Assembly (NCBI GenBank): GCA_951406725.2
Contig: OX597825.1
Coordinates: 39,680,001-39,744,000, forward strand
Reading direction: 5' to 3'
Length of the DNA stretch: 64,000 nucleotides
Source of the DNA: Octopus vulgaris
Lineage: Eukaryota
The position numbers and the translations under genes are program-made. Positions 11,946-61,735 of this stretch are shown one piece after another; position 1 is the first letter of the stretch; every line of letters begins with the position of its first letter. The notes under the pieces are model-generated. The model saw only the letters and a program-made list of their open reading frames with translations. It did no database searches and had not been told where the DNA came from.

Positions 11946-14639
11946 TGTTTCATTTTCACAGGGAAAACAATTTGAAATACTAGTTGTCTGTAATAAAGTT
12001 CCCGCATTACATGCTGTATACTGGATACATTATACTTATACGATATATTCATCTTATACAACATAATAATTTTGCTTATCATATATTATTAACTTTGAAA
12101 GGAATGAAAGCCATGATTTCTATTATTATCAAATTTCTGTAGAAATTTATATAGTAAAATAATACAGTTAATGAACCTATTTCATGAGGTGCAAATATTT
12201 TGGGATGTGTCAATATGTATGTTATATATATTGTTAATATAGTTTATAGGGATACACATATACACTGTTCCCTATATCTTTCGCTGTAAGTTGACACTGT
12301 ATTTTCCAAATATTTATGATGTCAAATATTTATATAATGATTAATATTCTGGTATATGGAAAGCCAGCAAAGTTGTCATAATATAGTTATTTCAGGAGTA
12401 GACTTCAAAGTTTATTGATACATGTGGCTCTAGAATCAATCGGCTCGACTGATTGGCATACACACGCGCGGATGCGCATATACGCACGTGCATATATAAA
12501 TATAACAGATACAGTAGAAAAGGTCCAAATTAGACAGACTACAATTAAGCCGTACTTATACGGGTTTAACTATGATAGAATAAGAATTGTCCAATCTGAA
12601 ACATATATTGATATATTAGACATATAAAGATATAGAAATATAAAAATATAAGAATACTAAAATTATACTGGACATATACATATATAGATGTGTAAACATA
12701 ATAATAATTGAATATAAATAAAAAATAATGAAATATAGAAAAATGACTTTTTTTTTAAATTCAGAGATTTTACCAAAATTTTTGGATACCCAAAAACGAG
12801 ATTTGGGTAACAAGTTAGAGGAAGATTTTCCAACGATTGTTTCAGGGGTAAATTCGTGTAGACTACACATGAAGGGACTATATGCAAATCTAGCGTAAAC
12901 ACTGTTTTTTCCTGATGATTGGGATATTCTATGAAAATAAATCTTAAGATTTATATGTAATTTGAACGAAGGATTGACCGCGAAAGAAAGAACATTTTAA
13001 GTCATATCTATGTTTATAAACAAAAGTGTATAAGATAATAAATGAAAACTCAAAAAGTTAACTTGCTCTGCGTAATGCATACTTATTATTTAAATATTCG
13101 GATGCGAAATAAGAAATATTAATTGTCTTCGATCCAAAATCCAGTTTTTTGTCGAAAGAAAAGTAAAATTGTAATTAATGATATTCTGGTAGAATATCTC
13201 CGAGTAACGTCTAGATTAAAATGCGCGTCGAGACAGATTTACATTTAGACGAAGATAATCTTTGAATCTCATAGTATATTTTAAGATATGATGAATATAG
13301 CTTTAGAGGGCGATCACAACCTTACAGTCCCTGGTTAGGATAAGTTTTAAAATTCATATATATATAGTACTAGTAAATTACATAAGTAGGATGTAGAAGC
13401 ATGTCCTAACCTTCTACACGTCATATAGAGTATCAACAGAAACGTGCAATCTCAAGTGCCTCATATTCTTATTGTATAGCAAACCGATGTTGAAGAATTT
13501 ATTTCGAAAATTACATCCGCATTATGTCACTCAGCACAATGTGTGTTTGTGTATGTGTATGTGTCTGTCTGTGTTTGTGCATGAGCGCGTTCGATTTTTG
13601 TGTTCGTGTATGCATGAGTGTGTATGCGTGGGTCTATTTATGAGTGTGTGTGCATCTGTGTGTGTGCATCTGTGTGAGCGCACAACTGTAGGTGTGTTAT
13701 ATGCGTGTGTAGGCGTATGTGTATGAGTGTGTTCCCGATAACGAACCCAAATTCTTAACCTACTATTTTATTACTGCGCAGTTATACATCTGATGTGTAT
13801 TTAAGAAGAGTAATATATTTCAATTAATCACAAGCTCATACGCAGTAACAGGCATACACAAATATATGAACAAACACGCACACAGCGTACACATACGCAC
13901 GCACACACGCACACATGTATACAGAATGTTCGGGATAAATTTGACGATAGTTACTACTTTTTTTAGGAACAGCTTGATGTAATATTGAACAGACAACGAA
14001 CAGCATTGTATGACCAGACATGTTACAGTCTGGTCATACACCCAGAGGAAACAAATTAGCTGACATGGAGGAAGCCACCAGGATATTGGAAAAGAGTTAA
14101 CTGCATCATGATGATTTGTGTCTGAAAATGCCTACGATATGTTTCTGAATAATCTCTATAGAACACTATAAATGAGGTATTACAGTGGAATACTTCCTAA
14201 TATCTCTAACACTACAGATAGATTTTGCATAAACATGGAAATCTAGGTAAAAGTTAGGAGATATCAAATAGTTCAATTTGTAAGTCCATAATTCCGATAA
14301 TAAGTTATGTTTTCAGTGTAATATAAGAAAAGGTATATATAACGGGATTCCTACATTTGTTTATGTGTGCATTCTAGACTTATACCTGTTTCGGATATAT
14401 TCCTTTCGTAATTTAGAGGTTTCATGGGTCCAATTACTCAATCGGTCGATTGATCGATTTAAAAGTGTAAAAATCCTACGTATAACTATAACAATAGCGA
14501 CAGAAACAACAACGACTACAACAACGAAAACAATAACAACAATAATGATAATAATAAAAGTAATAAATGAATGCACTGATACAGTACTAAACAGTGGCTC
14601 TCGTGGATGTTCATCTTAATTGATTGGAAGTTGTATTAT

Positions 14640-14815
14640 GTACATGGTTTGTATTGGTATAAAAGATAGGCTACAACAAATATTCTGCTCAATACCACAA
14701 GATTTGCTTGCCAATTGTTTGACATAATTTAGTTGAGCATGTCCCTTTGTGGCTGACGATATGTGCATCCCTGATCACGAGCAGAAGTAGTAGGGGAACA
14801 TCATAGCCATTTGTT
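14640..14815. mobile_element. SINE-like repeat fragment abutting the LINE 5' truncation point
   Basis: Non-coding GC-richer block (AATATTCTGCTCAATACCACA...TGAGCATGTCCC...GATCACGAGCAGAAG) recognised from memory as a dispersed repeat. No second copy in this window. Confidence 0.4.
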
Positions 14816-17340
14816 GAGAACGAACAACCAAAAAAGGAGTATTAAAACAACAAACTCAGCATCTGAGCAACTTTGGACCCCCATAACAACTGAAGAGGTC
14901 ACCCAGGCATTGCAAAGACTAAGCAAGGCACCTGGATATGACAAGATCCCCAACGTCTGGTTGAAATATCTAACAAGAATGCATAAAAAGCTGACTGAAA
15001 AATTTAACAACATACTGGCAGAGCCAGAGACAATGCCTGAATGGCTCACGAAGGGGAAAACCATCTTAATTCCCAAGTCAAACGAGACAGCAAAACCAGA
15101 AAACTAAAAACCTATAAACTGTCTCCCTACAATGTACAAAACATTTACTGCAGTGATATCACATAGATTGAACAAGAACCTGGACGAAAACAACATGTTT
15201 CCAGAAGAGCAGAAAGGATGCCGCAAAGGCTCATATGGCTGTAAAGATCAACTAGTGATCAATAAAGACATAACTGAAGACAGCTACAGAAAGAAGAAAG
15301 GCATCAGTATGGCCTGGATCGACTACAAAAAGGAGTTTGATACCATCCCAGACACACGGATCCTCGAAACACTAGCCATTAACAAATTTGTACCAACATT
15401 TATAAAATACATAGGACACTCTATGAATAAATGGCAGACAGTGCAACAGCTCCAAACAAAAAAGGGACTTGTGAAAACCAAACCATCCCCATTAGAAGAG
15501 GGATATTCCAGGGAGACACGCTCTCTCCACTCCTTTTCTGCTTGGCACTGTCACCTGTATCTCATATGCTAAACAGAACTGGATGCGGATATACAGGTTA
15601 CGGCAAAACGATCAGCCACATTTTATATATGGGTGACCTAATACTATACGCCACAAATGACAAACAGCTGGAAACACTATTAAAGACAGCTCATGGATTT
15701 ATCAAAGAAATAGATATGAAATTTGGATTGGAGAAATGCGCCAAAGTAACACTGAAAAGAGGAAAACTAGTTAAGAGTAGCAACATCACACTAGTTAAAA
15801 CCAATGAAATAAAAGTATTAGACCAAAGCCAAACTTACAAATACTTAGGAATCCATGAACTAGATAAGACACAACACACACAAATGAAAGAGAAAATGAA
15901 AAAAGAATATTACAGACGAATTAGAGCAATACTGAAAACAGCTCAATGCTAAAAACAAGATAATAGGTATCAGCACTTTAGCCGTCTCAGTTATAAGTTA
16001 AAGCTACAATATCCTTAACTGGACACTAAATGAACTGACCAAAATAGATAGGAAAACAAGAAAAATAATGACAGGATCTAGGATGCATCATCTGACATAG
16101 AAAAGCTATCTATACAACGTATAGAAGGTGGTAGAGGCCTTATACAGTTGGAAAACCATTATAAAATAACCACCATAGGACTGTAAAAATATCTACTTCA
16201 GAAGGAAGGTAAACTGATACAAATAGCGGCAAAACACGAGCAAAACAATAAACTGTTCTCAGTATTTAAAGAAGCTGACAAATAGAAACAAGAATTCATA
16301 CCACCTAACAAATAGAAAGAAGAAGAAGAAGAAGAAGAAGAAGAAGAAGAAGAAGAAGAAGAAGAAGAAGAAGAAGAAGAAGAAGAAGAAGAAGAAGAAA
16401 CAACAAAAGCTATAAAACAAATGAAATCCAAATTAAAAATAGAACAGCAATGAACTATGATAAAACGATGACAAGAAAACCCCTTCATGGCAAATACTGG
16501 ACTAAACTAAATGCATAAGAAATAGACAAAGAAAAATCCCAGCAATGTTTGAGAAGCACAGGACTCAAAGCAGAGACAGAAGGATTTTTAATTGCAGCAC
16601 AAGACCAAAGACCCCACCCCACCAGAAATTATCAAAAACATGTAATGAAAAGAAATATAACAAGTAACCGCAGTATATGTGGAGATGGACAAGAAACAAT
16701 AAATCATATTATCTCTGGCTGCCCAGTCCTGGCTAAGAAGGAATATATTCACAGACATGAAAGGATCGGGACCTATATACACTGGAATCTATGCCAACAT
16801 TATGAAATAACAACAGAAAAAAGGTGGTATAGGCACACACCAGAAAAGGTCACAGAAAACGAGAAAGCAACCATACTCTGGGATATGCCAATACACACAG
16901 ATAGAGAAATTAAGGCCAACAGACCAGATATAGATATCAGAGATCATGAAGAAAATGATGCTTTCTAAATGATATATCCATACCAGCAGATGACAACGTG
17001 TCTCTAAATGAAATGGAGAAACTTTCAAAATACAAAGACCTGGAAATAGAGGTAACCAGAATGTGGAGTCTAAAAACAGAAACAATTCCTATCATAATAG
17101 GTGCATTAGGCATGATTAATAAAATATTCAGACAAATACATAACAGAAATACCAGGACTTACAAACACATATAACATATAGAAAATTGCACTACTAGGCA
17201 CTTCACACATCCTCGCAGAACACTTTCAATACAGTAACCATCAGAACATCACAACAAATCACAGCACATACCCAAGGCACACAGAACTGCGCTCGGTAGT
17301 GAAGTGAAAACACGTTATAAAAATAAAACTCCTGAATGAT
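14816..17340 (+). mobile_element. 5'-truncated RLE-type LINE (R4/Dong-like): RT + CCHC knuckle + restriction-like endonuclease, tail into (AAT)n
   Basis: KAPGYDKI, EEQKGCRKGSYGCKDQL, AWIDYKKEFD, RRGIFQGDTLSPLLF, LYMGD (YMDD), FGLEKCA, YKYLGI, C..ETINHIISGC, RH, WD, RPDI. The 3' UTR ends AAAATAAAACTCCTGAAT followed by (AAT)n. Confidence 0.9.
16319..16399. repeat. (GAA)n expansion inside the LINE ORF
   Basis: About 27 perfect units. Confidence 0.95.
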
Positions 17341-19368: not shown

Positions 19369-19464
<96 letters not shown>

Positions 19465-19503
19465 AAAAAAGGTTTGAAAATGCAATTTAAACGATGTTTA
19501 TTT

Positions 19504-19544
19504 ACTTAACCGGTTTCACTCTTTGGTAAAAGATTGTCAAAAGT
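19504..19544 (-). ncRNA. Decayed minimal hammerhead ribozyme in the PLE 3' end
   Basis: ACTT-TTGACAA-TCTTT TACC AAAGA-GT-GAAA-CCGG-TT-AAGT. Stems are intact and the core is two transitions away from CTGACGA. Confidence 0.6.
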
Positions 19545-20085
19545 TACATTTAAGGAAACATTGAATAATATGGGTTCAAAAAAAGTTTTTTACATAATTG
19601 TCACATTGAATATTATGCATTCAAAAATGTTTTTTATACATAATTGTCACATTACATGTATAAATATAGTGTTTGGTAACAGAGAAGTTCAATAGTGTGA
19701 TGAGAATATTTGGGAAAATTTGGCAGAAAAGGATAAAACAAATATATTATTGGGAATTGGTTGCGTTAATTATTGGTTGTCGCAAATTGTCACATTACAT
19801 GTATATATATACAATCTTTGGTATATATATACAGCCTTTTGACAGCAAAAATTAAAATGGATTTTTTATACATCTCAGAATATTTTAAGTACAAGGCGAG
19901 AATATGTTTTTACTGACCTGTCGGTATTAGCAGAAAGGCTGAACTGAGAGAACAGAGGAAGTAGCCAATGTGGTGTATACTTCCCTTTATGCATGAATGA
20001 TTTTGGGGTTATCAGGAGGTTAGTATGCGGGTGTGAATAGATGTGTCCGTGCCTGCTGGTCAGATAGCGTCTGTTTGTCACACAC

Positions 20086-20122
<37 letters not shown>

Positions 20123-20307
20123 ACAACACACACACACGCATAGTAAACAAACACACACCACATACAAACAACACATACACACACACAGAACACACACACC
20201 CACACACAACGCACCCACATATATCACATATACACACAGCACACAAATATAATATGTATCTATATATAACATACACAGATATATAACACACATACACACA
20301 CAACACA

Positions 20308-20340
<33 letters not shown>

Positions 20341-21224
20341 CACACGCACACATACATACATAATATAAATATCACACAAATACACCTAGCATATATATAC
20401 ACACATACAATACACACATACAGCATGTAAGTAATATACATACACAATATATGCATGCAATATACATACGCAGTACATACATATAATATATATATAGACA
20501 ATGCATATACATATATACACATACAGCATGTAAGTAATATACATACACAATATATGCATGCAATATACATACGCAGTACATACATATAATATATATATAT
20601 ATATAGACAATGCATATACATATATACACATATACATATAAATAGTGTTTACATACACATACATAGATGTACACACATATACACACAATACACATACATA
20701 CAATGCATACACATACACGTACGCATACATATAATATATATATACACACACACACATAACATACATACACAATGCATACATATATATACACGCAATGCAC
20801 ATACATGTATTCATGCATATATAGCACACCTACAATATACATATATACAATGCACACATACACACACACCCGCACACAGTGCACACACACACACACATAT
20901 ATACACACGTGCTCACACACACACACAACGCGCGCGCACACACACATATACACACACACGCACACAGTGCACACACACACACATATATATATACACCCAC
21001 GCACACACACACACAACGTGCACACACACACACACACAACACTCACACACATACATCACCTACATATATATAATGCATGCATGTGCATGCCACGTATGTG
21101 TGCGGTCAATGCCCGCTAGTGTGTCCTATGCGTGCCGATGCGCGCATGTGCCCGCCCGCACGATATGCTGTGAGCGTGCACGCGTCCCTGTGTGCTTGCT
21201 CTGGATGTGTTTCCAGGGGGTATG

Positions 21225-21524
21225 TTAGAGTATGTTTAGTTGTGGTCTGTATTTTTGAATAAGATTACTTTCCTTATTTATTCGTGTTTGGTTTGTGGTG
21301 TTGTCCGAGCATTGATATAGTGGGAAGACTAAGAATTTGGGGGACTTATTGTGTGCACAAAGGTCTAAGTGTCCACTTAGTGGTATCTGTCTTGTGGAGG
21401 GGTCCCTCAGTTGTTGTCGGTGAACTGTCATTCTGTCTCTGAGGGTAAGGCTCGTTTGCCCTATGTAGTCTTCGTGGCATCCTTCACACCTTATGACGTA
21501 GAGTAAATTTTTTTTGATGCGCAC
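21225..21524 (-). pseudogene. PLE GIY-YIG endonuclease
   Basis: LLYVIRCEGCHEDYIGQTSLTLRDRMTVHR...RINKESNLIQKYRPQLN. Confidence 0.9.
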
Positions 21525-21755
21525 GTGAAATTATTTTTTATGATGAATGTGTGTCCCGAGTGGAACTTGTACGACGATCCCTCAATGAGGTGGATGCAGG
21601 TCTTGCAGTTGGGGCGACCACATTTTTTGATGGTGGGCGGTGGGTTTGTGTTGTGTAATTTTGCGTTGGTGAGGAGGTTTTTTAGGGATTTAGGTTGTCT
21701 CTTACTTTTTATTATTTTATGAGCTGCCAGTATTTTTTCAGGCGTGGGTCTTGAT

Positions 21756-22777
21756 TTAGTTGTGGAATGTTGTTGTATATAATAGTGTAAGCTTCTGCAT
21801 TCCTTGGGTTGTGTGTTGAGAGATAAGGAGGCTATTGACTGTACTGTGGATGTGTTTGGGTTTTCGAAGGTCTTGAATGTTGATTGATTTGGCCCGTTCT
21901 ATTCCGTTGTCTACTAGTGATGCCGGGTAATGTCTTTCGAGAAGAATTGCCCTTAGTTCCCGGAGTCTTCTATTTCGTATTGTGTCATTTGAGACAATAG
22001 TGCAGATTCTTCTCGCTACGTTGAAGGGGATATTTGTCTTTGTGTGTTTTGGGTGATTGGAGGTGAATAGAAGGTATTGTTTAGAGTCAGTGGGTTTGTA
22101 ATGGATGTCAGTTTCAATGTTGACGCCTTTTTTAATGATTAGGATGTCAAGAAAAGGGAGTTGGTCCTGACTATATTCCATTGTGAATTGAATGTTGTTA
22201 TTTACACTGTTGATAAGGTTTTTGAAGTATATAAATTGGTCGAGTGTGTGGGACCATAGGATGAGGCAATCATCTAAGTAGCGTTTCCAGTTCTCCAACA
22301 GGTATTTGTGGAAAGACTGGCCGTACTTATATTTGGATTTTTCATAGATATGTGATTCCAGGTAGGCCATCGCCAGGTTTGCATAGGTAGGTGCAACTTT
22401 CGTACCCATTGCAGTTCCTGAGACCTGTCTGTAAGTGTTGTTGTGGAAATACATGAAGTTGTTTTGCAGAATAAATTTGAGGCCCTCAATTATGAATTCA
22501 TTTTTAATTCTTTCCGGGATCTCATTGGGATATTTATCCAGCCAGAATTTAATGGCTTCCAGTCCAAATTCATGTGGGATTGTGGTGTAAAGATTAATAA
22601 CATCAAAAGAAACGATTAAGGTGTCTTTATCGGCATGTTTGGGGAGATGGTTTAATAGGTCCAGGTCATCTCTTACAATACTTGGAATGTGTTTCAGTAT
22701 TGGCTTTAAGATGATATCTATAAAGTTGCTAAGTCTGTGTGTTTCACAACTTGGGCCTGCCACTATTGGTCTCAGTT
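21756..22777 (-). pseudogene. PLE reverse transcriptase, N-terminally truncated
   Basis: 335-aa ORF with intact RT core motifs including YLDD. Confidence 0.9.
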
Positions 22778-22813
22778 TATATATATATATATAATTAATA
22801 TATATATATATAA

Positions 22814-22867
<54 letters not shown>

Positions 22868-23158
22868 AATATATATATATAATTAATATATAATTAATAT
22901 ATATATATAATTAATATATAATTAATATATATATATAATTAATCAATATAGGGTGGCAAAAAATTTCGTAGAATTTTTTTGCCACCAGCGGCCTAGTGGG
23001 AAAAAATTAAATAGTCATAGACCATTTGTAAATTCAACAGCAAAATCAAGGAACGGCCATAATAGGCCATTCACCCACTAGAAATAACAGGCAAAGCTTC
23101 AACCGCAAAACAACATTAATTCCGCAAACCAGGAGAAAATTAAAACATTTACCCTGTA

Positions 23159-23264
23159 GTTCCTTATACGATGACCGTTTCATCTATTGTTTAATGGTAA
23201 ACTAACCTGATTAAATTAAATCAAGCTAGTCTTCCATAGGCCGATAGATTCGTCAGTAAAGAAC
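23159..23264 (-). ncRNA. Type I hammerhead ribozyme (array 1, inverted arm)
   Basis: Same as 23781-23887 with a 1-nt deletion in stem III (CGGTCATCG). Confidence 0.8.
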
Positions 23265-23780
23265 AGCCAGATCGGAGCAGATAATTACACGAGGCACTTC
23301 TATCACTGTCTCGGCAACATCTGACCTAAAATTTTCAAATCATCGCACTCGCGCCAAATTTATCGGCAGCAAATATAAGCCGCCGATTCCATTACGGAAT
23401 TAACCAGAAAATTCATAATTAATCAATATAGGGTGGCAAAAAATTTCGAAGAATTTTTTGCCACCAGCGGCCTAGGCGGCTGGTGGCAAAAAATATGACC
23501 TATTGTGGGCGTTCCTTGATTTTGCTGTTGAATTTACAAATGGTCTATGGCTATTTAATTTTTTCCCACTAGGACGCTGGTGGCAAATAAATTCTACGAA
23601 ATTTTTTGCCACCCTATATTGATTAATTATGAATTTTCTGGTTAATTCCGTAATGGAATCGGCGGCTTATATTTGCTGCCGATAAATTTGGCGCGAGTGC
23701 GATGAGTTGAAAATTTTAGGTCAGATGTTGCCGAGACAGTGATATAAGTGCCTCGTGTAATTATCTGCTCCGATCTGGCT

Positions 23781-23887
23781 GTTCTTTACTGACGAATCTA
23801 TCGGCCTATGGAAGACTAGCTTGATTTAATTTAATCAGGTTAGTTTACCATTAAACAATAGATGAAACGGTGCATCGTATAAGGAAC
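23781..23887 (+). ncRNA. Type I hammerhead ribozyme (array 1, unit 1)
   Basis: GTTCTTTA-CTGACGA-ATCTAT...ATAGAT-GAAA-CGGTGCATCG-TA-TAAGGAAC. All three stems pair. Predicted cut after A23879 (GUA). Confidence 0.88.
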
Positions 23888-24263
23888 TACAGGGTAAATG
23901 TTTTTTAAATTTTCTCCTGGTTTGCGGAATTAATGTTGTTTTGTGGTTGAAGCTTTGGCTGTTATTTCTGGTGGGTGAATGGCCTATTATGGCGTTCCTT
24001 GATTTTGCTGTTGAATTTACAAATGGTCTATGACTATTTAATTTTTTCCCACTAGGCCGCTGGTGGCCAAAAAATTCTTCGAAATTTTTTGCCACCCGCT
24101 ATTGATTAATTATGAATTTTCTGGTTAATTCCGTAATGGAATCGGCGGCTTATATTTGCTGCCGATAAATTTGGCGCGAGTGCGTTGAGTTGAAAATTTT
24201 AGGTCAGATATTGCCGAGACAGTGATAGAAGTGCCTCTTGTAAATATCTGCTCCGATCTGGCT

Positions 24264-24370
24264 GTTCTTTACTGACGAATTTATCGGCCTATGGAAGACT
24301 AGCTTGATTTAATTTAATCAGTTTAGTTTACCATTAAACAATAGATGAAACGGTGCATCGTATAAGGAAC
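24264..24370 (+). ncRNA. Type I hammerhead ribozyme (array 1, unit 2)
   Basis: As unit 1. The stem II variant ATTTAT/ATAGAT keeps pairing through U-G. Confidence 0.87.
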
Positions 24371-24746
24371 TACAGGGTAAATGTGTTTTTAATTTTCTCC
24401 TGGTTTGCGGAATTAATGTTGTTTTGCGGTTGAAGCTTTGGCTGTTATTTCTAGTGGGTGAATGGCCTATTATGGCCGTTCCTTGATTTTGCTGTTGAAT
24501 TTACAAATGGTCTATGACTATTTAATTTTTTCCCACTAGGCCGCTGGTGGCAAAAAATTCTTCGAAATTTTTTGCCACCCTCTATTGATTAATTATGAAT
24601 TTTCTGGTTAATTCCGTAATGGAATCGGCGGCTTATATTTGCTGCCGATAAATTTGGCGCGATTGCGTTGAGTTGAAAATTTTAGGTCAGATATTGCCGA
24701 GACAGTGATAGAAGTGCCTCTTGTAAATATCTGCTCCGATCTGGCT

Positions 24747-24853
24747 GTTCTTTACTGACGAATCTATCGGCCTATGGAAGACTAGCTTGATTTAATTTAA
24801 TCAGCTTAGTTTACCATTAAACAATAGATGAAACGGTGCATCGTATAAGGAAC
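24747..24853 (+). ncRNA. Type I hammerhead ribozyme (array 1, unit 3)
   Basis: As unit 1. Predicted cut after A24845. Confidence 0.88.
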
Positions 24854-24998
24854 TACAGGGTAAATGTTTTTTTAATTTTCTCCTGGTTTGCGGAATTAAT
24901 GTTGTTTTGCGGTTGAAGCTTTGGCTGTCATTTCTAGTGGGTGAATGGCCTATCATGGCCGTACCTTGATTTTGCTATATATATATATATATATATAC

Positions 24999-25110
<112 letters not shown>

Positions 25111-28981: not shown

Positions 28982-29385
28982 ATCATCATCATCATCATCA
29001 TCATCATTTAGCGTCCGTTTTCCATGCTAGCATGGGTTGGACGGTTCAACTGGGGTCTGGGGAGCCCGAAGGCTGCACCAGGCCAGTCAGATCTGGCAGT
29101 GTTTCTACAGCTGGATGCCCTTCCTAACGCCAACCACTCCGAGAGTGTAGTGGGTGATTTTATGTGCCACCGACACAGGTGCCAGACGAGGCTGGCGAAC
29201 GGCCACGCTCGGATGGTGTTTTTATGTGCCACCGACACAGGTGCCAGACGAGGCTGGCAGACGGCCACGCTCGGATGGTGTTTTTATGTGCCACCGACAC
29301 AGGTGCCAGATGAGGCTGGCGGACGGCCACGATCGGATGGTGTTTGTTACGTCCCCAAAGCACGGAGGCCAGTCTATGCGGTACT

Positions 29386-32170: not shown

Positions 32171-32211
<41 letters not shown>

Positions 32212-32219
<8 letters not shown>

Positions 32220-35212
32220 TAAGGGCTCCTAAATAAAGATGCCGAGTGCTGGGAACACAAAAAGGGGATGAATTTATCGAGAGTGAAAATCAAAAACGTT
32301 TACCGATAACTTTAACAACTCGTACCGCGGTTTCTGCTTCTTTCTAGCAAAACACAGAATATGTTTGCTAAGGCTGTCCTCATCAGCGAGTCGCCTGAAT
32401 TTAATCGAGGTCTGCAGCGATGTGGGGCTATATGTTAAACCCGACTGCTAGCAGATCTTAACTTTTCAAATCTCTGCGCAGACGCAAAATTTACACGGGC
32501 ATGCCGGGAAGAATTTTACGAATAAATTCATCATGTAGTATGCGAATATAAGCAAGAAGGGTAGTAATATTATTTACTACCAGGTGCCCAGCACAAAAGA
32601 CGAATTAGTCATAAGACAAAAATGTTATTCATATAGAAAAATATTATTCATGTGGTTATACAATTAAGGGCTCTTAAATAAAGATGCCGAGTGCTGGGAA
32701 CACAAAAAGGGGATGAATTTATCGAGAGTGAAAATCAAAAACGTTTACCGATAACTTTAACAACTCGTACCGCGGTTTCTGCTTCTTTCTAGCAAAACAC
32801 AGAATATGTTTGCTAAGGCTGTCTTCATCAGCGAGTCGCCTGAATTTAATCGAGGTCTGCAGCGATGTGGGGCTATATGTTAAACCCGACTACTAGCAGA
32901 TCTTAACTTTTCAAATCTCTGCGCAGACGCAAAATTTACACGGTCATGCCGGGAAGAATTTTACGAATAAATTCATCATGTAGTATGCGAATATAAGCAA
33001 GAAGGGTACTAATATTATTTACTACCAGGTTCCCGGCATGCCCGTGTAAATTTTGCGTCTGCGCAGAGATTTGAAAAGTTAAGATCTGCTAGCAGTCGGG
33101 TTTAACATATAGCCCCACATCGCTGCAGACCTCGATTAAATTCAGGCGACTCGCTGATGAAGACAGCCTTAGCAAACATATTCTGTGTTTTGCTAGAAAG
33201 AAGCAGAAACCGCGGTACGAGTTGTTAAAGTTATCGCTAAACGTTTTTGATTTTCACTCTCGATAAATTCATCCCCTTTTTGTGTTCCCAGCACTCGGCA
33301 TCTTTATTTAGGAGCCCTTAATTGTATAACCACATAAATAATATTTTTCTATATGAATAACATTTTTGTCTTATGACTAATTCGTCTTTTGTGCTGGGCA
33401 CCTGGTAGTAAATAATATTACTACTCTTCTTGCTTATATTCGCATACTATATGATGAATTTATTCGTAAAATTCTTCCCGGCATGCCCGTGTAAATTTTG
33501 CGTCTGCGCAGAGATTTGAAAAGTTAAGATCTGCTAGCAGTCGGGTTTAACATATAGCCCCACATCGCTGCAGACCTCGATTAAATTCAGGCGACTCGCT
33601 GATGAAGACAGCCTTAGCAAACATATTCTGTGTTTTGCTAGAAAGAAGCAGAAACCGCGGTACGAGTTGTTAAAGTTATCGGTAAACGTTTTTGATTTTC
33701 ACTCTCGATAAATTCATCCCCTTTTTGTGTTCCCAGCACTCGGCATCTTTATTTAGGAGCCCTTAATTGTATAACCACATAAATAATATTTTACTATATG
33801 AATAACATTTTTGTCTTATGACTAATTCGTCTTTTGTGCTGGACACCTGGTAGTAAATAATATTACTACTCTTCTTGCTTATATTCGCATACTACATGAT
33901 GAATTTATTCGTAAAATTCTTCCCGGCATGCCCGTGTAAATTTTGCGTCTGCGCAGAGATTTGAAAAGTTAAGATCTGCTAGCAGTCGGGTTTAACATAT
34001 AGCCCCACATCGCTGCAAACCTCGATTAAATTCAGGCGACTCGCTGATGAAGACAGCCTTAGCAAACATATTCTGTGTTTTGCTAGAAAGAAACAGAAAC
34101 CGCGGTACGAGTTGTTAAAGTTATCGGTAAACGTTTTTGATTTTCACTCTCGATAAATTCATCCCCTTTTTGTGTTCCCAGCACTCGGCATCTTTATTTA
34201 GGAGCCCTTAATTGTATAACCACATGAATAATATTTTTCTATATGAATAACATTTTTGTCTTATGACTAATTCGTCTTTTGTGCTGGACACCTGGTAGTA
34301 AATAATATTACTACTCTTCTTGCTTATATTCGCATACTACATGATGAATTTATTCGTAAAATTCTTCCCGGCATGCCCGTGTAAATTTTGCGTCTGCGCA
34401 GAGATTTGAAAAGTTAAGATCTGCTAGTAGTCGGGTTTAACATATAGCCCCACATCGCTGCAGACCTCGATTAAATTCAGGCGACTCGCTGATGAAGACA
34501 GCCTTAGCAAACATATTCTGTGTTTTGCTAGAAAGAAGCAGAAACCGCGGTACGAGTTGTTAAAGTTATCGCTAAACGTTTTTGATTTTCACTCTCGATA
34601 AATTCATCCCCTTTTTGTGTTCCCAGCACTCGGCATCTTTATTTAGGAGCCCTTAATTGTATAACCACATGAATAATATTTTTCTATATGAATAACATTT
34701 TTGTCTTATGACTAATTCGTCTTTTGTGCTGGGCACCTGGTAGTAAATAATATTACTACCCTTCTTGCTTATATTCGCATACTACATGATGAATTTATTC
34801 GTAAAATTCTTCCCGGCATGCCCGTGTAAATTTTGCGTCTGCGCAGAGATTTGAAAAGTTAAGATCTGCTAGTAGTCGGGTTTAACATATAGCCCCACAT
34901 CGCTGCAGACCTCGATTAAATTCAGGCGACTCGCTGATGAAGACAGCCTTAGCAAACATATTCTGTGTTTTGCTAGAAAGAAGCAGAAACCGCGGTACGA
35001 GTTGTTAAAGTTATCGGTAAACGTTTTTGATTTTCACTCTCGATAAATTCATCCCCTTTTTGTGTTCCCAGCACTCGGCATCTTTATTTAGGAGCCCTTA
35101 ATTGTATAACCACATGAATAATATTTTTCTATATGAATAACATTTTTGTCTTATGACTAATTCGTCTTTTGTGCTGGGCACCTGGTAGTAAATAATATTA
35201 CTACCATTCTTG

Positions 35213-35219
<7 letters not shown>
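32212..35219. repeat. Hammerhead-bearing 445-bp tandem array with divergent inverted arms (retrozyme-like), flanked by (TA)n
   Basis: CTGATGA at 33154, 33599, 34044, 34489 and 34934 (+) and at 32380-86 and 32825-31 (-), all 445 apart. Junction at 33030. Units differ by only a few substitutions. Confidence 0.93.
33145..33226 (+). ncRNA. Type I hammerhead-like ribozyme (array 2; repeated at +445, +890, +1335, +1780 and twice on the minus strand)
   Basis: GGCGACTCG-CTGATGA-...TAGCAAACATA TTC TGTGTTTTGCTA...-GAAA-CCGCGG-TA-CGAGTTGTT. Stem I is 9 bp and stem III is palindromic (ACCGCGGT). The base of stem II is not Watson-Crick paired. Confidence 0.75.
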
Positions 35220-39508: not shown

Positions 39509-40706
39509 CGAGGGACGTTCAATAAGTAATGCCTCTGACCCACTTGCAGTTATTTGACCTAGCTGAAATTTTGCATGTACACATATTTATATCTCTAAAA
39601 ATTAAGTGGCAAATTACAGCTCTGAACTAATTGTGGTGTCTGATTTACAGGTGTTTTAACTGAGTCAAGTGTGAAATGGAGCCTGTTGAGTGTCGAGCAG
39701 TGATCCGGTTTTTGTATTTGAAAGGACGCACACCACGGGAGACTTTTGATGAAATGAAAGTAACTTATGGTGATGATGCCCCATCATATGACCTTGTAAA
39801 AAGTTGGCATCGTGAATCCAAACATGGTCGGAACTCTGTGGAAACTCTCCAAGATCTGGTCGCCCCCTTCTGCCATTGATGAGGCATCTGTCCGTCAAGT
39901 TGTGGCTGCCATTTTGGAAGATCGACGCATAACTATTCGCCAAATAGCCCATGAGATCAAGATTAGTGCCGGGTCTTTGGAAGTTATCATTCATGACCAT
40001 TTGCATATGCAAAAGGTGTCTGCCAGATGGATTCCCAGGTTGCTCACACCTTTCCAGAAGCAAGAACGTGTCGAGTGCTCGAGGATGAATTTGGAGATGT
40101 GCCAAGAAGAAGAGTCAAAATTTTCAAAAGACTGATTACACAGGATGAAACCTGGGTCCATCACTATGATCCAGAGACCAAAGCCCAATCAATGCAGTGG
40201 AAGCATCGTGACTCACCTCCTCCAAGGAAGGCAAGGGTGCAGCCCTCCGCTGGCAAGGTCATGCTCACAGTCTTCTGGGACCAGGACGGAGTAGTGATGA
40301 CAGATTTCCTGGCAAAGGGTAGCACAATTACAGGACCCTATTATGCTTCACTTTTGAGGAAATTAAGAGAAGCTATCAAAATCAGGTTGCGGGGCAAGAT
40401 CAGCGTGTCGCCAGATCAGAAGCACAGGCGTGTTGCTATGAACTCCTCCCCCATGCCCCCTACTCTCCTGACCTTGCACCTTCTAATTTTCACCTCTTCC
40501 CAGCGATTAAGTTGTTTTAGAAGGGAAAGCTTTTCCCAGGTGATGCAGCCTTGATTTCTGAAGTCACGTCGTGGTTGGAGGACCAAGCTGGGGTCTTCTA
40601 CAAAAACGGTCTTCAGAGCTGCATCAAACGATGAGAGAAATGCATAACTCTGGGTGGTTCCTATGTAGTTAAATACTAATAACTGTGCCAAGTTTCATTG
40701 CTCTAC
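39509..40706 (+). mobile_element. Second copy of the 8693-9950 mariner family; 5' TIR intact, 3' TIR lost
   Basis: TA-CGAGGGACGTTCAATAAGTAATGCCTCTGACCC and MEPVECRAVIRFLYLKG. Similarity stops at GCTCTAC (40706). Confidence 0.93.
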
Positions 40707-59500: not shown

Positions 59501-60794
59501 TTTCTGACTAAAATTCAATCGAACTTGCACTCCAGAAAAGGGAAAAGCACTATCATAATTTATTAGCCACTAAGTATGTTCAAATAACCGATATATTCAC
59601 CTTAATTCTATAAATGGTATGCTGGCCTTTATTTATATTAAGTATCAAATACAGAATTACTTTCTCACTTATTGATCACAACACTGGCAGACCAACGGCT
59701 GCTAAGCTGCACGGCGTTGAAAATTTTGAAAATATTTGACGGTGATGTCATTGATATTTCGTCTTATGCTGAAAACAGATGCTTGCACATCTAAAAGCGC
59801 ATAAATCAATAAAGATAGCTTTTGAATAGATTTCAAAAATATCGTGTTATATCTTCGCTTCGTGCATTAAACGAGAAACAACGTTTTCATTGTAAAATGA
59901 TATTTATCATTCCTCAGGAACTATGCTATCTTTTTGCAAACTTCATACAATATCAAAATAAGTATTATTCTTCGAAGTAAATAAACAATATTTGATGCGA
60001 TTAGAGTGTGTATTGTTATTCAACAGAAGCGGATTTGTATGAAGATACTCTATGATGTGCTACAGAAATATTTTTGATCTCTGAAGAATAGACATTTAGT
60101 AAAATGCTCGATTAGTTCTCTGCAATAATGTAGCTAGCTGACTAGAAAGCTTGGTTGTACTTTAAATATTATTTATTTTACTCTATTATTGCTTCGAAAG
60201 AAAATGGAATTCCATACCTGAGAAAATAAATAGAATCGGCTGGTTTTTTAGTCTTTTTAAAGACATATGTTTCGAAACATCTATGAATTTTAAAGGCACG
60301 TTAATAATTAAATATTTTTCTATTAACCTGGGTACAAATTATGTAATTAACAATATGATTGCAACGAATTCATCAAAAAAGCGGCATTTCTACTTCTACA
60401 TTGTCATAAGTGGAATGTGGTTAGTCTGTCTACTCACCGTCGAATGTATCTGAAATTAATCCGTAAACAAAATACAGGCTTGTGTATGATATACAAACAG
60501 ACTTGTATGTTAATATGTACCGTGAATATACGAGCAAACTTCCTACACCTAAGGTCAAAAAATATATACAAATATTAATCATTAATTCTTCGCCCATTTG
60601 AGTGCTACAGAAAATATACTTACCCGATTTCTTGCACGCATTAACAAACATACACGTTAGTAAAACTTAAAATATTCTCAAACACATATATTCTTAGAAA
60701 TAAGAATGATTTTAACGGCGATAATACACTAATATTTTTTATACTAATTTTTTAAATCAAACTAAATGAAAACCAATCTTACAGTACTTGGAGA

Positions 60795-61735
60795 AAACAT
60801 ATTGGCGATATGAGGGCGGGCCTTGTCGGGCAGCAGAAGAACTCCATGTTGTCGGTTAGGTATTTTCTCTTGAATAGCCGTGTTGAGACGTTCCCTTTGT
60901 TGAACATAGAGTTCCACGTTGACCGTTTGGTTCATTTCAAGCAATTCGTAACGGATAATCCCTTCCCAGCTCCACCATACGCACAACATCGTGTTACGCG
61001 GATGAAGACCTTCTTCCACGCATGGTGTCGCTTGTTTACCGGGGATAAGCCATTCCTTACGCTGCTTCATATTGATATACATGCACCATTTTCCGTCGCC
61101 AGTAACGATTTGGTAAAGAAATCGTTGCTTGTGTCCATGAGTAGAGTGCCTACGAGCAAGCAAACGAGCGGAGATTGTGGCTCGTTGATTTTTATTGTTG
61201 TCACTTAAAGCATGCGGAACCCATGCGCCATACTTCTGAATTTTTCTCATCGTGTGAAGATGCTTCTTTATAGCAGTGTGGGAGCATTCCATTTTCTCTA
61301 CCAGTTCTCTTGTTTGAAAAGATTTTTCGTGCAAAAGTTGGTTTGATAGCTCTTCATCGAACTCAACTGGACGGCCAGAACGAGGTGCGTCTTTGAGATC
61401 AAAATTCCCATTTTTGAACTTGGCATACCAATCACGAGTGGTTCTTTAAGCTATGGCACCCTCGCCATACACAGCACAAATGTCGGGAGCAGCATTGGCG
61501 GTCTTAGAACAATGATTACAAGCAAAATGAAGGAGGTGTCGAAAATACTCATTTGTCTTAACTTGACATTCCATTTTAATGATATGAAAATAAACAAAAA
61601 TTAACTAGAAGACAAATAGGTTCCAAAATGATTCAGAAACAGAATTCTCGAAAAAAATAGATTCCCAAATTTAAAAACGCAATCAATTCCAAATTTTAAA
61701 AAAACATACGGCGGCTGAATTATTTGCCAGCCAAA
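60795..61735 (-). mobile_element. Mariner of a second family, 3' truncated, transposase disrupted
   Basis: Start ATGGAATGTCAAG at 61574. Motifs GAWVPHALS, IVTGDGKW, MLCVWW, LLPDKARPH. Decayed TIR-like end near 61710-61737. Confidence 0.88.

Follow-up and report, generated by a model that had tools for sequence, protein, structure and literature searches.

The window analysed here is a stretch of 64,000 nucleotides of Octopus vulgaris DNA (contig OX597825.1, positions 39,680,001 to 39,744,000). It contains a non-coding repeat, Array 1, built from 483-nt monomers and lying between two (TA)n tracts (Table 1). As the original prediction had described, a minus-strand arm and a plus-strand arm point apart from a junction, and the 3′ ends of both arms run into (TA)n; the junction measures about 19 bp. 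TRF reported a period of 483 repeated 3.1 times in the tandem arm.

Table 1. Array 1, its parts, its neighbors and other HHR families. Positions are those of the window unless preceded by a locus name; monomer positions (+n) are nucleotides counted from the predicted hammerhead ribozyme (HHR) cut.
Feature	Position	Strand	Description	Basis
5′-truncated, frameshifted PLE	19463..22778	-	neighbor, outside the Array 1 element; RT + GIY-YIG, long 3′ UTR, common TA tract	
Left (TA)n target tract	22778..22937	.		TRF
Inverted arm	22935..23475	-	541 bp; monomer +173, through one cut site, to end B (+234) in (TA)n	self-BLAST
Tail	22935..23038	-	about 104 nt between ends A and B, present at just one insertion end	
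Hairpin GGTGGC...GCCACC	22952..22986	-	directly upstream of end B; compensatory changes in related families	
Type I HHR on inverted arm	23159..23264	-	predicted cut after 23167; core intact, stem III palindrome without one G	
Junction	23476..23494	.	about 19 bp; joins two 5′-truncated ends	sequence read directly
Tandem arm	23495..24976	+	1482 bp, 3.07 monomers; +100, through three cut sites, to end A (+131) in (TA)n	TRF, self-BLAST
Type I HHR copy 1	23781..23887	+	stem I 8 bp, CUGACGA, 68-nt stem II domain, GAAA, palindromic stem III; predicted GUA cut after 23879	
One cut-to-cut monomer	23880..24362	+	483 nt; predicted linear/circular RNA unit	
Type I HHR copy 2	24264..24370	+	predicted cut after 24362	
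Type I HHR copy 3	24747..24853	+	predicted cut after 24845	
Right (TA)n target tract	24976..25106	.		TRF
Array 2	32185-35219		445-bp HHR monomers, same divergent inverted layout in (TA)n	
Related HHR family	L070:8345-8640	-	1831 candidates, 82-91% identical; CCATGG palindrome, about 90-nt tail, same paired ends	
Further HHR family	L189:5085-5520	-	about 430-465 bp, inverted pairs; 3943 candidates for the query	

The junction is a short fold-back copy of neighboring monomer sequence, that is, a templated insert, and was presumably made by end-joining. The monomer has a GC content of 37-38%, and its circular fold scores z about -3 against 40 doublet shuffles. The longest ATG ORF in a monomer dimer is 25 aa, which bears out the earlier view that the monomer holds no credible coding sequence. 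The hairpin in the tail is a candidate RT-recognition element. The internal divergence of the window array is 2.9%, its shared variants form a patchwork, and the array is older or mixed.

Several other features were seen in the window. The left TA tract is interrupted by seven ATAATTAAT units identical to the first bases of end B, which either microsatellite slippage or repeated RT starts could have produced. A disrupted RT of LINE type and two fragments of mariner-type transposases occur at 14284-15952, 39997-40554 and 60762-61445, and a GC-rich 62-bp tandem repeat (3.1 copies) lies beside a TA tract at 29153-29345.

The motif in the three plus-strand copies combines a CUGANGA / GAAA / UH core with stems I, II and III and is open at stem I, as in a type I HHR. 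The expectation of a complete ribozyme in every monomer therefore held for these copies and fell short by one stem III base in the minus-strand copy. The GUA cut sites lie at A23879, A24362 and A24845, exactly where they had been placed. The HHR region folds with z = -4.9, a value equaled by none of 200 shuffles (window). The 10-nt stem III palindrome gives -17.5 kcal/mol as a dimer compared to -0.2 kcal/mol as a monomer, and a dimer arrangement with palindromic stem III has been described for metazoan HHRs (PMC4209133). A search with the Rfam hammerhead models, proposed earlier as a check, returned no match in the window, array included, at the gathering threshold or at E<=10, and none in two PLE loci either. 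A likely reason is the long 68-nt stem II together with the palindromic stem III.

Array 1 belongs to a large family. A first look at the animal's own genome (2.8 Gb) gave 1339 candidates, of which 40 were scored; full copies are 92-97% identical and are spread over more than 20 contigs. One subfamily's HHR 3′ half has 922 exact occurrences compared to none for the reversed control, and exact junctions of end B with (TA)n occur at least 949 times compared to none in the control. For the end-A junction pattern the count uses 329 forward-strand matches only. The tail motif is present in 3277 copies (8 in the reversed control), and 91 of the first 100 are members of the family; two outliers sharing this pattern were considered as partner candidates and proved to be chance matches. 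The dispersed, TA-flanked arrays that had been anticipated are thus real, and at least 949 junctions on this many contigs rule out both a local satellite and an assembly artefact.

Cut-to-cut monomers of the family measure 481-499 bp. We mapped 162 distinct loci. Of L025 and L026, which lie 220 kb apart on one contig with identical insertion and flanks and represent a segmental or assembly duplicate, L026 was excluded; seven complex loci were kept outside the table of pairs. An arm is long enough to hold two HHRs in 55 of the 162 loci, and the window has three in succession. An LTR layout was sought in all 162 and none was seen; a target duplication is unreadable inside (TA)n. Doubt about the inversion itself was addressed in the assembly sequence: it recurs in 110 of the 162 loci with different junctions and is therefore not an artefact. 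The sequencing runs that match the monomer do so as contigs only, none of them recorded as RNA. The contigs of four runs (three guessed to be RNA, one of unknown type) cover the monomer, and one spans a head-to-tail join, which is present in the DNA tandem too.

Across 95-97 loci, the 11 core columns of the ribozyme hold one minor allele in 1055, compared to 3.5% elsewhere, while N7, a free position, is found as any of the four bases and the cut base is A or C. Counted by column the contrast is not significant (0 of 11 versus 73 of 436, p=0.22), because few columns vary and the copies are related. Within the family one stem II pair switches from A-U to G-C. Pair 10.1-11.1, an A-U, is frequently mismatched, which speaks against selection. 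Stem III variants mostly retain the palindrome; one variant with five copies weakens it.

Similar observations were made in related families. The family represented at L070 is homologous to Array 1 (nhmmer E 1e-7 to 1e-17); it keeps the core, has a different palindrome and shows a compensated G-C/A-U switch in stem I. Array 2 (1028 candidates) aligns in phase to the monomer with a score of 193 compared to 126 ± 9 for shuffles, none of 300 reaching it, with a profile E of about 1e-3. It too has the tail hairpin, with two compensated pairs, and in about 13 of its listed loci a short end is matched with a long one; it is probably a distant relative of Array 1. The stem II base of Array 2 is unpaired. 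The family at L189 showed no similarity to the Array 1 profile. Taken as sequence evidence, these comparisons support selection on the ribozyme, and the related families do so more strongly than the core columns. It is likely that the family self-cleaves its RNA. Two published results weigh on the other side. Among predicted Xenopus retrozyme dimers, eight of nine did not cleave in vitro (10.64898/2026.07.22.740005). For an anole PLE, HHR cleavage was dispensable in vitro and no reads ended at the hammerhead site (PMC11167929).

The arms of the insertions end at two fixed points, A at about +126 to +133 and B at +234 after the HHR cut. In the first 102 loci, 165 of 179 arms ended at A or B, and 167 of 179 ended in TA. 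Adjacent divergent pairs (n=110, from the 162 loci) comprised 98 that joined an A arm with a B arm, none with two A ends, one with two B ends and 11 with one damaged end. The single BB pair is an artefact in which a hairpin self-match hides an A arm of a few bases. Ends chosen independently would have given AA or BB in half of the pairs. The A arm is longer than the B arm in 40 of the 98 AB pairs; simple fold-back copying, in which one arm would be the template of the other, was therefore rejected. At the junctions we found 50 overlaps, 4 blunt joins and 44 inserts, the inserts often reiterating local sequence, and 13 of the 98 pairs join their arms in the same phase compared to 4.3 expected.

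This anatomy resembles that of PLE insertions, in which a truncated copy is inverted and one end carries a tail of 30-40 bp (PMC8557442). At AT-rich DNA, a PLE protein was shown to cut both strands and extend them, and the tail is the stretch between two internal RT start sites (PMC11167929). The Array 1 family shares this tail signature, but its tail is about 104 nt compared to the 30-40 nt published. Insertion into TA repeats by a PLE-type enzyme is accordingly a likely reading of the ends, and the family would function like a non-autonomous PLE.

The form of the RNA template can be judged from where the arms stop. This was assessed in the 90 loci that head the end-B list, which had been selected regardless of the HHR. 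Of 128 arms that reach +1 to +40 on the first pass, 34 stop there; 40-nt bins elsewhere hold 118 stops per 1775 (Fisher p=3e-11). When the same interval is reached on a later pass, 5 of 63 arms stop, which is background (7.9% versus 6.6%; first versus later, p=0.002). The result persists with B arms alone, one per locus (17 of 67 versus 71 of 1057, p=5e-6; first versus later, p=0.04), and both arms stop in this interval in 12 of 63 pairs compared to 3.3 expected. The stop points lie at +2 to +40, with none at +1. Since this stretch is T/A-rich and no arm starts at +1, microhomology contributes and some trimming is needed. A pile-up confined to the first pass is as expected for run-off from a linear RNA cut by the ribozyme, and provides indirect support for the cut.

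Many arms do not stop there. The cut site is crossed by 94 of 157 arms, which extend up to 3522 bp, and monomers differ by 0.76% within an arm and 0.90% between the arms of a locus, compared to 6.0% between loci; both arms therefore derive from one template sequence. Read-through and homogeneity together fit a template without ends, which was likely circular. A monomer circle would be the simplest such template, and uncut multimers transcribed from young, uniform arrays would fit too. For the window array, with its 2.9% divergence and patchwork of variants, pure copying of a single circle is insufficient without later conversion or duplication.

It could be argued on this basis that the same element and the same PLE enzyme are at work while the templates of the multimers are linear read-through transcripts that were left uncut, circles being uninvolved. 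We regard this as unlikely, although it deserves serious weight. Heterogeneity of up to 3-3.6% in the window array and a few others speaks for it, as does the finding that RNA left unprocessed is the main substrate in vitro (PMC11167929). On the other hand, long arrays are nearly uniform (0.1% over 11 passes at L243, 0.09% over 8 passes at L190) against 6% between loci, and most variants within a locus are private or uncommon (334 of 429 occur in 0-2 other loci). Partly cut multimers, moreover, predict stops at later cut sites, where the 5 of 63 represent no excess. The RNA template was thus, on the evidence of the arrays, probably often circular.

Another possibility is that the pile-up at +1 to +40 marks a transcription start, or a hotspot of microhomology or pausing, and that the HHR is weakly active or kept for some other step. 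The lack of any arm beginning exactly at +1, the many junctions in the T/A run from +19 to +30 and the general tendency of pairs toward same-phase joining are all in keeping with this. A hotspot of sequence or structure should, however, recur on later passes, and the later-pass rate is at background; one arm also commonly extends to +3 to +12, a position upstream of the T run. A promoter would require a start site that falls within 10 nt of the cut by coincidence. We consider this explanation quite unlikely, and an RNA end at the cut the better account of an excess seen only on the first pass.

The source of the enzyme is a separate matter. As originally predicted, a PLE lies across the left TA tract, with RT (PF00078, E=5e-8) and GIY-YIG (PF01541, E=1e-5) domains; a search for protein homologues confirmed a PLE-type protein and added nothing further. 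Its family is young, with 99% identical copies, 3461 candidates, a 5.83-kb unit with two ORFs and a tail of 48 nt, and the tails of the sampled PLEs are about 45-50 nt. In one copy (L073:1673-7641) an upstream ORF of 480 aa, without NCBIfam match, overlaps the 776-aa RT-EN ORF, and the 3′ UTR of about 2 kb is rich in microsatellites. Minimal HHR motifs of the U3-A8 type were also seen, by eye and by motif scan, about 60 nt before PLE 3′ ends (window 19504-19544, minus strand; L188, L197 and L328-L345).

Similarity to the monomer as a terminal repeat was found in none of 49 loci of the adjacent family and none of 30 GIY-YIG loci, and 3′-end similarity to an autonomous family in none of these 79 PLE loci, which come from few families. 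A profile search likewise yielded no partner. Among 138 Array 1 loci screened with tblastn, none has an RT + GIY-YIG ORF joined to the monomer. A PLE RT/EN fragment lies within the fetched stretch at 10 of the 138; nine are separated from the monomer by TA tracts and the tenth is more than 5 kb off, so adjacency reflects a common target. The adjacent PLE belongs to an unrelated 5.8-kb family that shares only this target, and its position is therefore no proof of partnership. The original prediction of a non-autonomous HHR retroelement with PLE-type insertion thus stands on copy number, TA targeting, the A and B ends and conservation of the HHR. Like other TA-targeting PLE families, the adjacent PLE may still be the trans-acting enzyme.

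These screens also bear on the idea, named at the outset as one that could overturn the interpretation, that the monomer is the pseudo-LTR (pLTR) of an unsampled autonomous PLE and the arrays its 5′-truncated insertions. It has precedent, as PLE pLTRs contain HHRs (PMC4209133) and, among 57 families of Xenopus retrozymes, 24 match Repbase transposable elements, nearly all of them PLE termini (10.64898/2026.07.22.740005); our partner search, moreover, sampled few PLE families (148 listed of 6136 GIY-YIG candidates, 30 examined). We nevertheless find it improbable, since arms run upstream into further monomer, up to seven in succession, and since, at the 138 loci screened, PLE fragments are so rarely near and never joined.

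In L1 twin priming, the inverted piece derives from the same RNA, of which it is the upstream part. A satellite spread by DNA recombination or rolling-circle DNA, or a LINE-mobilized element inverted by twin priming, would suit the tandem layout, the signs that parts of the window array were locally duplicated or converted and the LINE RTs in the genome, but is made highly improbable by ends fixed at two points in TA, 5′ ends at random positions, strict pairing of A with B, the lack of a poly(A) tail and arms that, unlike those of L1 twin priming, both carry the 3′ end and point apart.

The most likely explanation, to which we assign a probability of roughly 0.78, is that Array 1 is one insertion from a dispersed family of non-coding HHR repeats, classed as an animal non-LTR retrozyme, and that a PLE RT/endonuclease acting in trans likely copies this family into (TA)n, likely from RNA processed by the ribozyme. 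Arrays would be transcribed into multimers, in which two HHRs would pair through their palindromic stem III and cut after GUA or GUC, yielding linear monomers of about 483-493 nt, some of which may be ligated into circles. A PLE protein would then nick both strands of the TA repeat and prime two cDNAs at A and B, about 104 nt apart; this step is modeled on the observed fixed ends and strict A+B pairing. With cut, linear RNA as template, the two cDNAs would run off close to the cut site, and on a circle they would give homogeneous multimers, in keeping with the end statistics and homogeneity observed. Joining of the cDNA ends by microhomology or templated inserts, as suggested by the junction types seen, would produce the divergent inverted layout. 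A fuller version holds that the entire retrozyme cycle in a germ line is recorded here: the HHR would cut in vivo, circles would be reverse-transcribed by a rolling-circle mode, a two-subunit PLE enzyme would, at every insertion, prime both target strands at two sites of the RNA about 104 nt apart, and a clan of related ribozyme RNAs in this genome would share the tail hairpin with no coding parent left. This we offer tentatively, at somewhat less than even odds.

On sequence, the family agrees in every respect tested with animal non-LTR retrozymes. Like those of coral, mussel and axolotl (PMC7229834) and of vertebrates (10.64898/2026.07.22.740005), it consists of tandem non-coding monomers with one type I HHR each, a GC content below 50%, dispersed copies and PLEs in the same genome. 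Its 483-493 bp exceed the 150-450 bp of PMC7229834 and fall within the 51-972 bp of 10.64898/2026.07.22.740005. In contrast to the published retrozymes, its HHR combines a 68-nt stem II domain with a 10-nt palindrome and escapes Rfam. For them, cleavage and circular RNA were shown experimentally; for the Array 1 family both are predicted. A circRNA template and PLE mobilization have been proposed for animal retrozymes (PMC7229834, PMC4209133), with support from co-occurrence and pLTR trees (10.64898/2026.07.22.740005).

With the EN+ PLEs Penelope/Poseidon, Neptune and Naiad (PMC8557442, PMC11167929), the family shares 5′-truncated tandem and inverted insertions, a tail at one end, two internal RT starts, AT-rich or microsatellite targets and an HHR upstream of the starts. 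It differs in lacking an ORF, in a tail longer than those published or that of the adjacent PLE, and in a canonical C3-G8 core where the PLEs sampled in this genome have U3-A8 minimal HHRs. Like the non-autonomous Chlamys PLEs such as MRC1 (PMC8557442), which are PLE-mobilized, it would be non-autonomous, and it is multicopy and head-to-tail. The Chlamys elements, as described there, match autonomous families at the 3′ end and belong to a clade without canonical HHRs; the Array 1 family, unlike them, has an HHR with a canonical core, and no matching autonomous family was found.

The class and its link to PLEs are already in print; the strict A+B pairing, the long tail and the run-off at the cut site appear to be new. 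Inverted A+B insertions, (TA)n targeting and cut-site run-off are absent from the accessible text of PMC7229834, where the word "inverted" does not occur, and from the main text of 10.64898/2026.07.22.740005. A literature search covering few subscription papers gave no paper on strict end pairing, a tail of about 104 nt or cut-site run-off in retrozymes.

Two questions are open in print: whether PLE machinery mobilizes animal retrozymes via circRNAs, and whether the PLE hammerhead cuts in vivo. The strict A+B pairing, the first-pass run-off and the uniform read-through multimers provide genomic evidence on both that can be counted. For in vitro work, the family now offers a 483-nt substrate whose start sites are mapped. 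Finally, because the ribozyme is invisible to Rfam, families of this kind are likely under-annotated.
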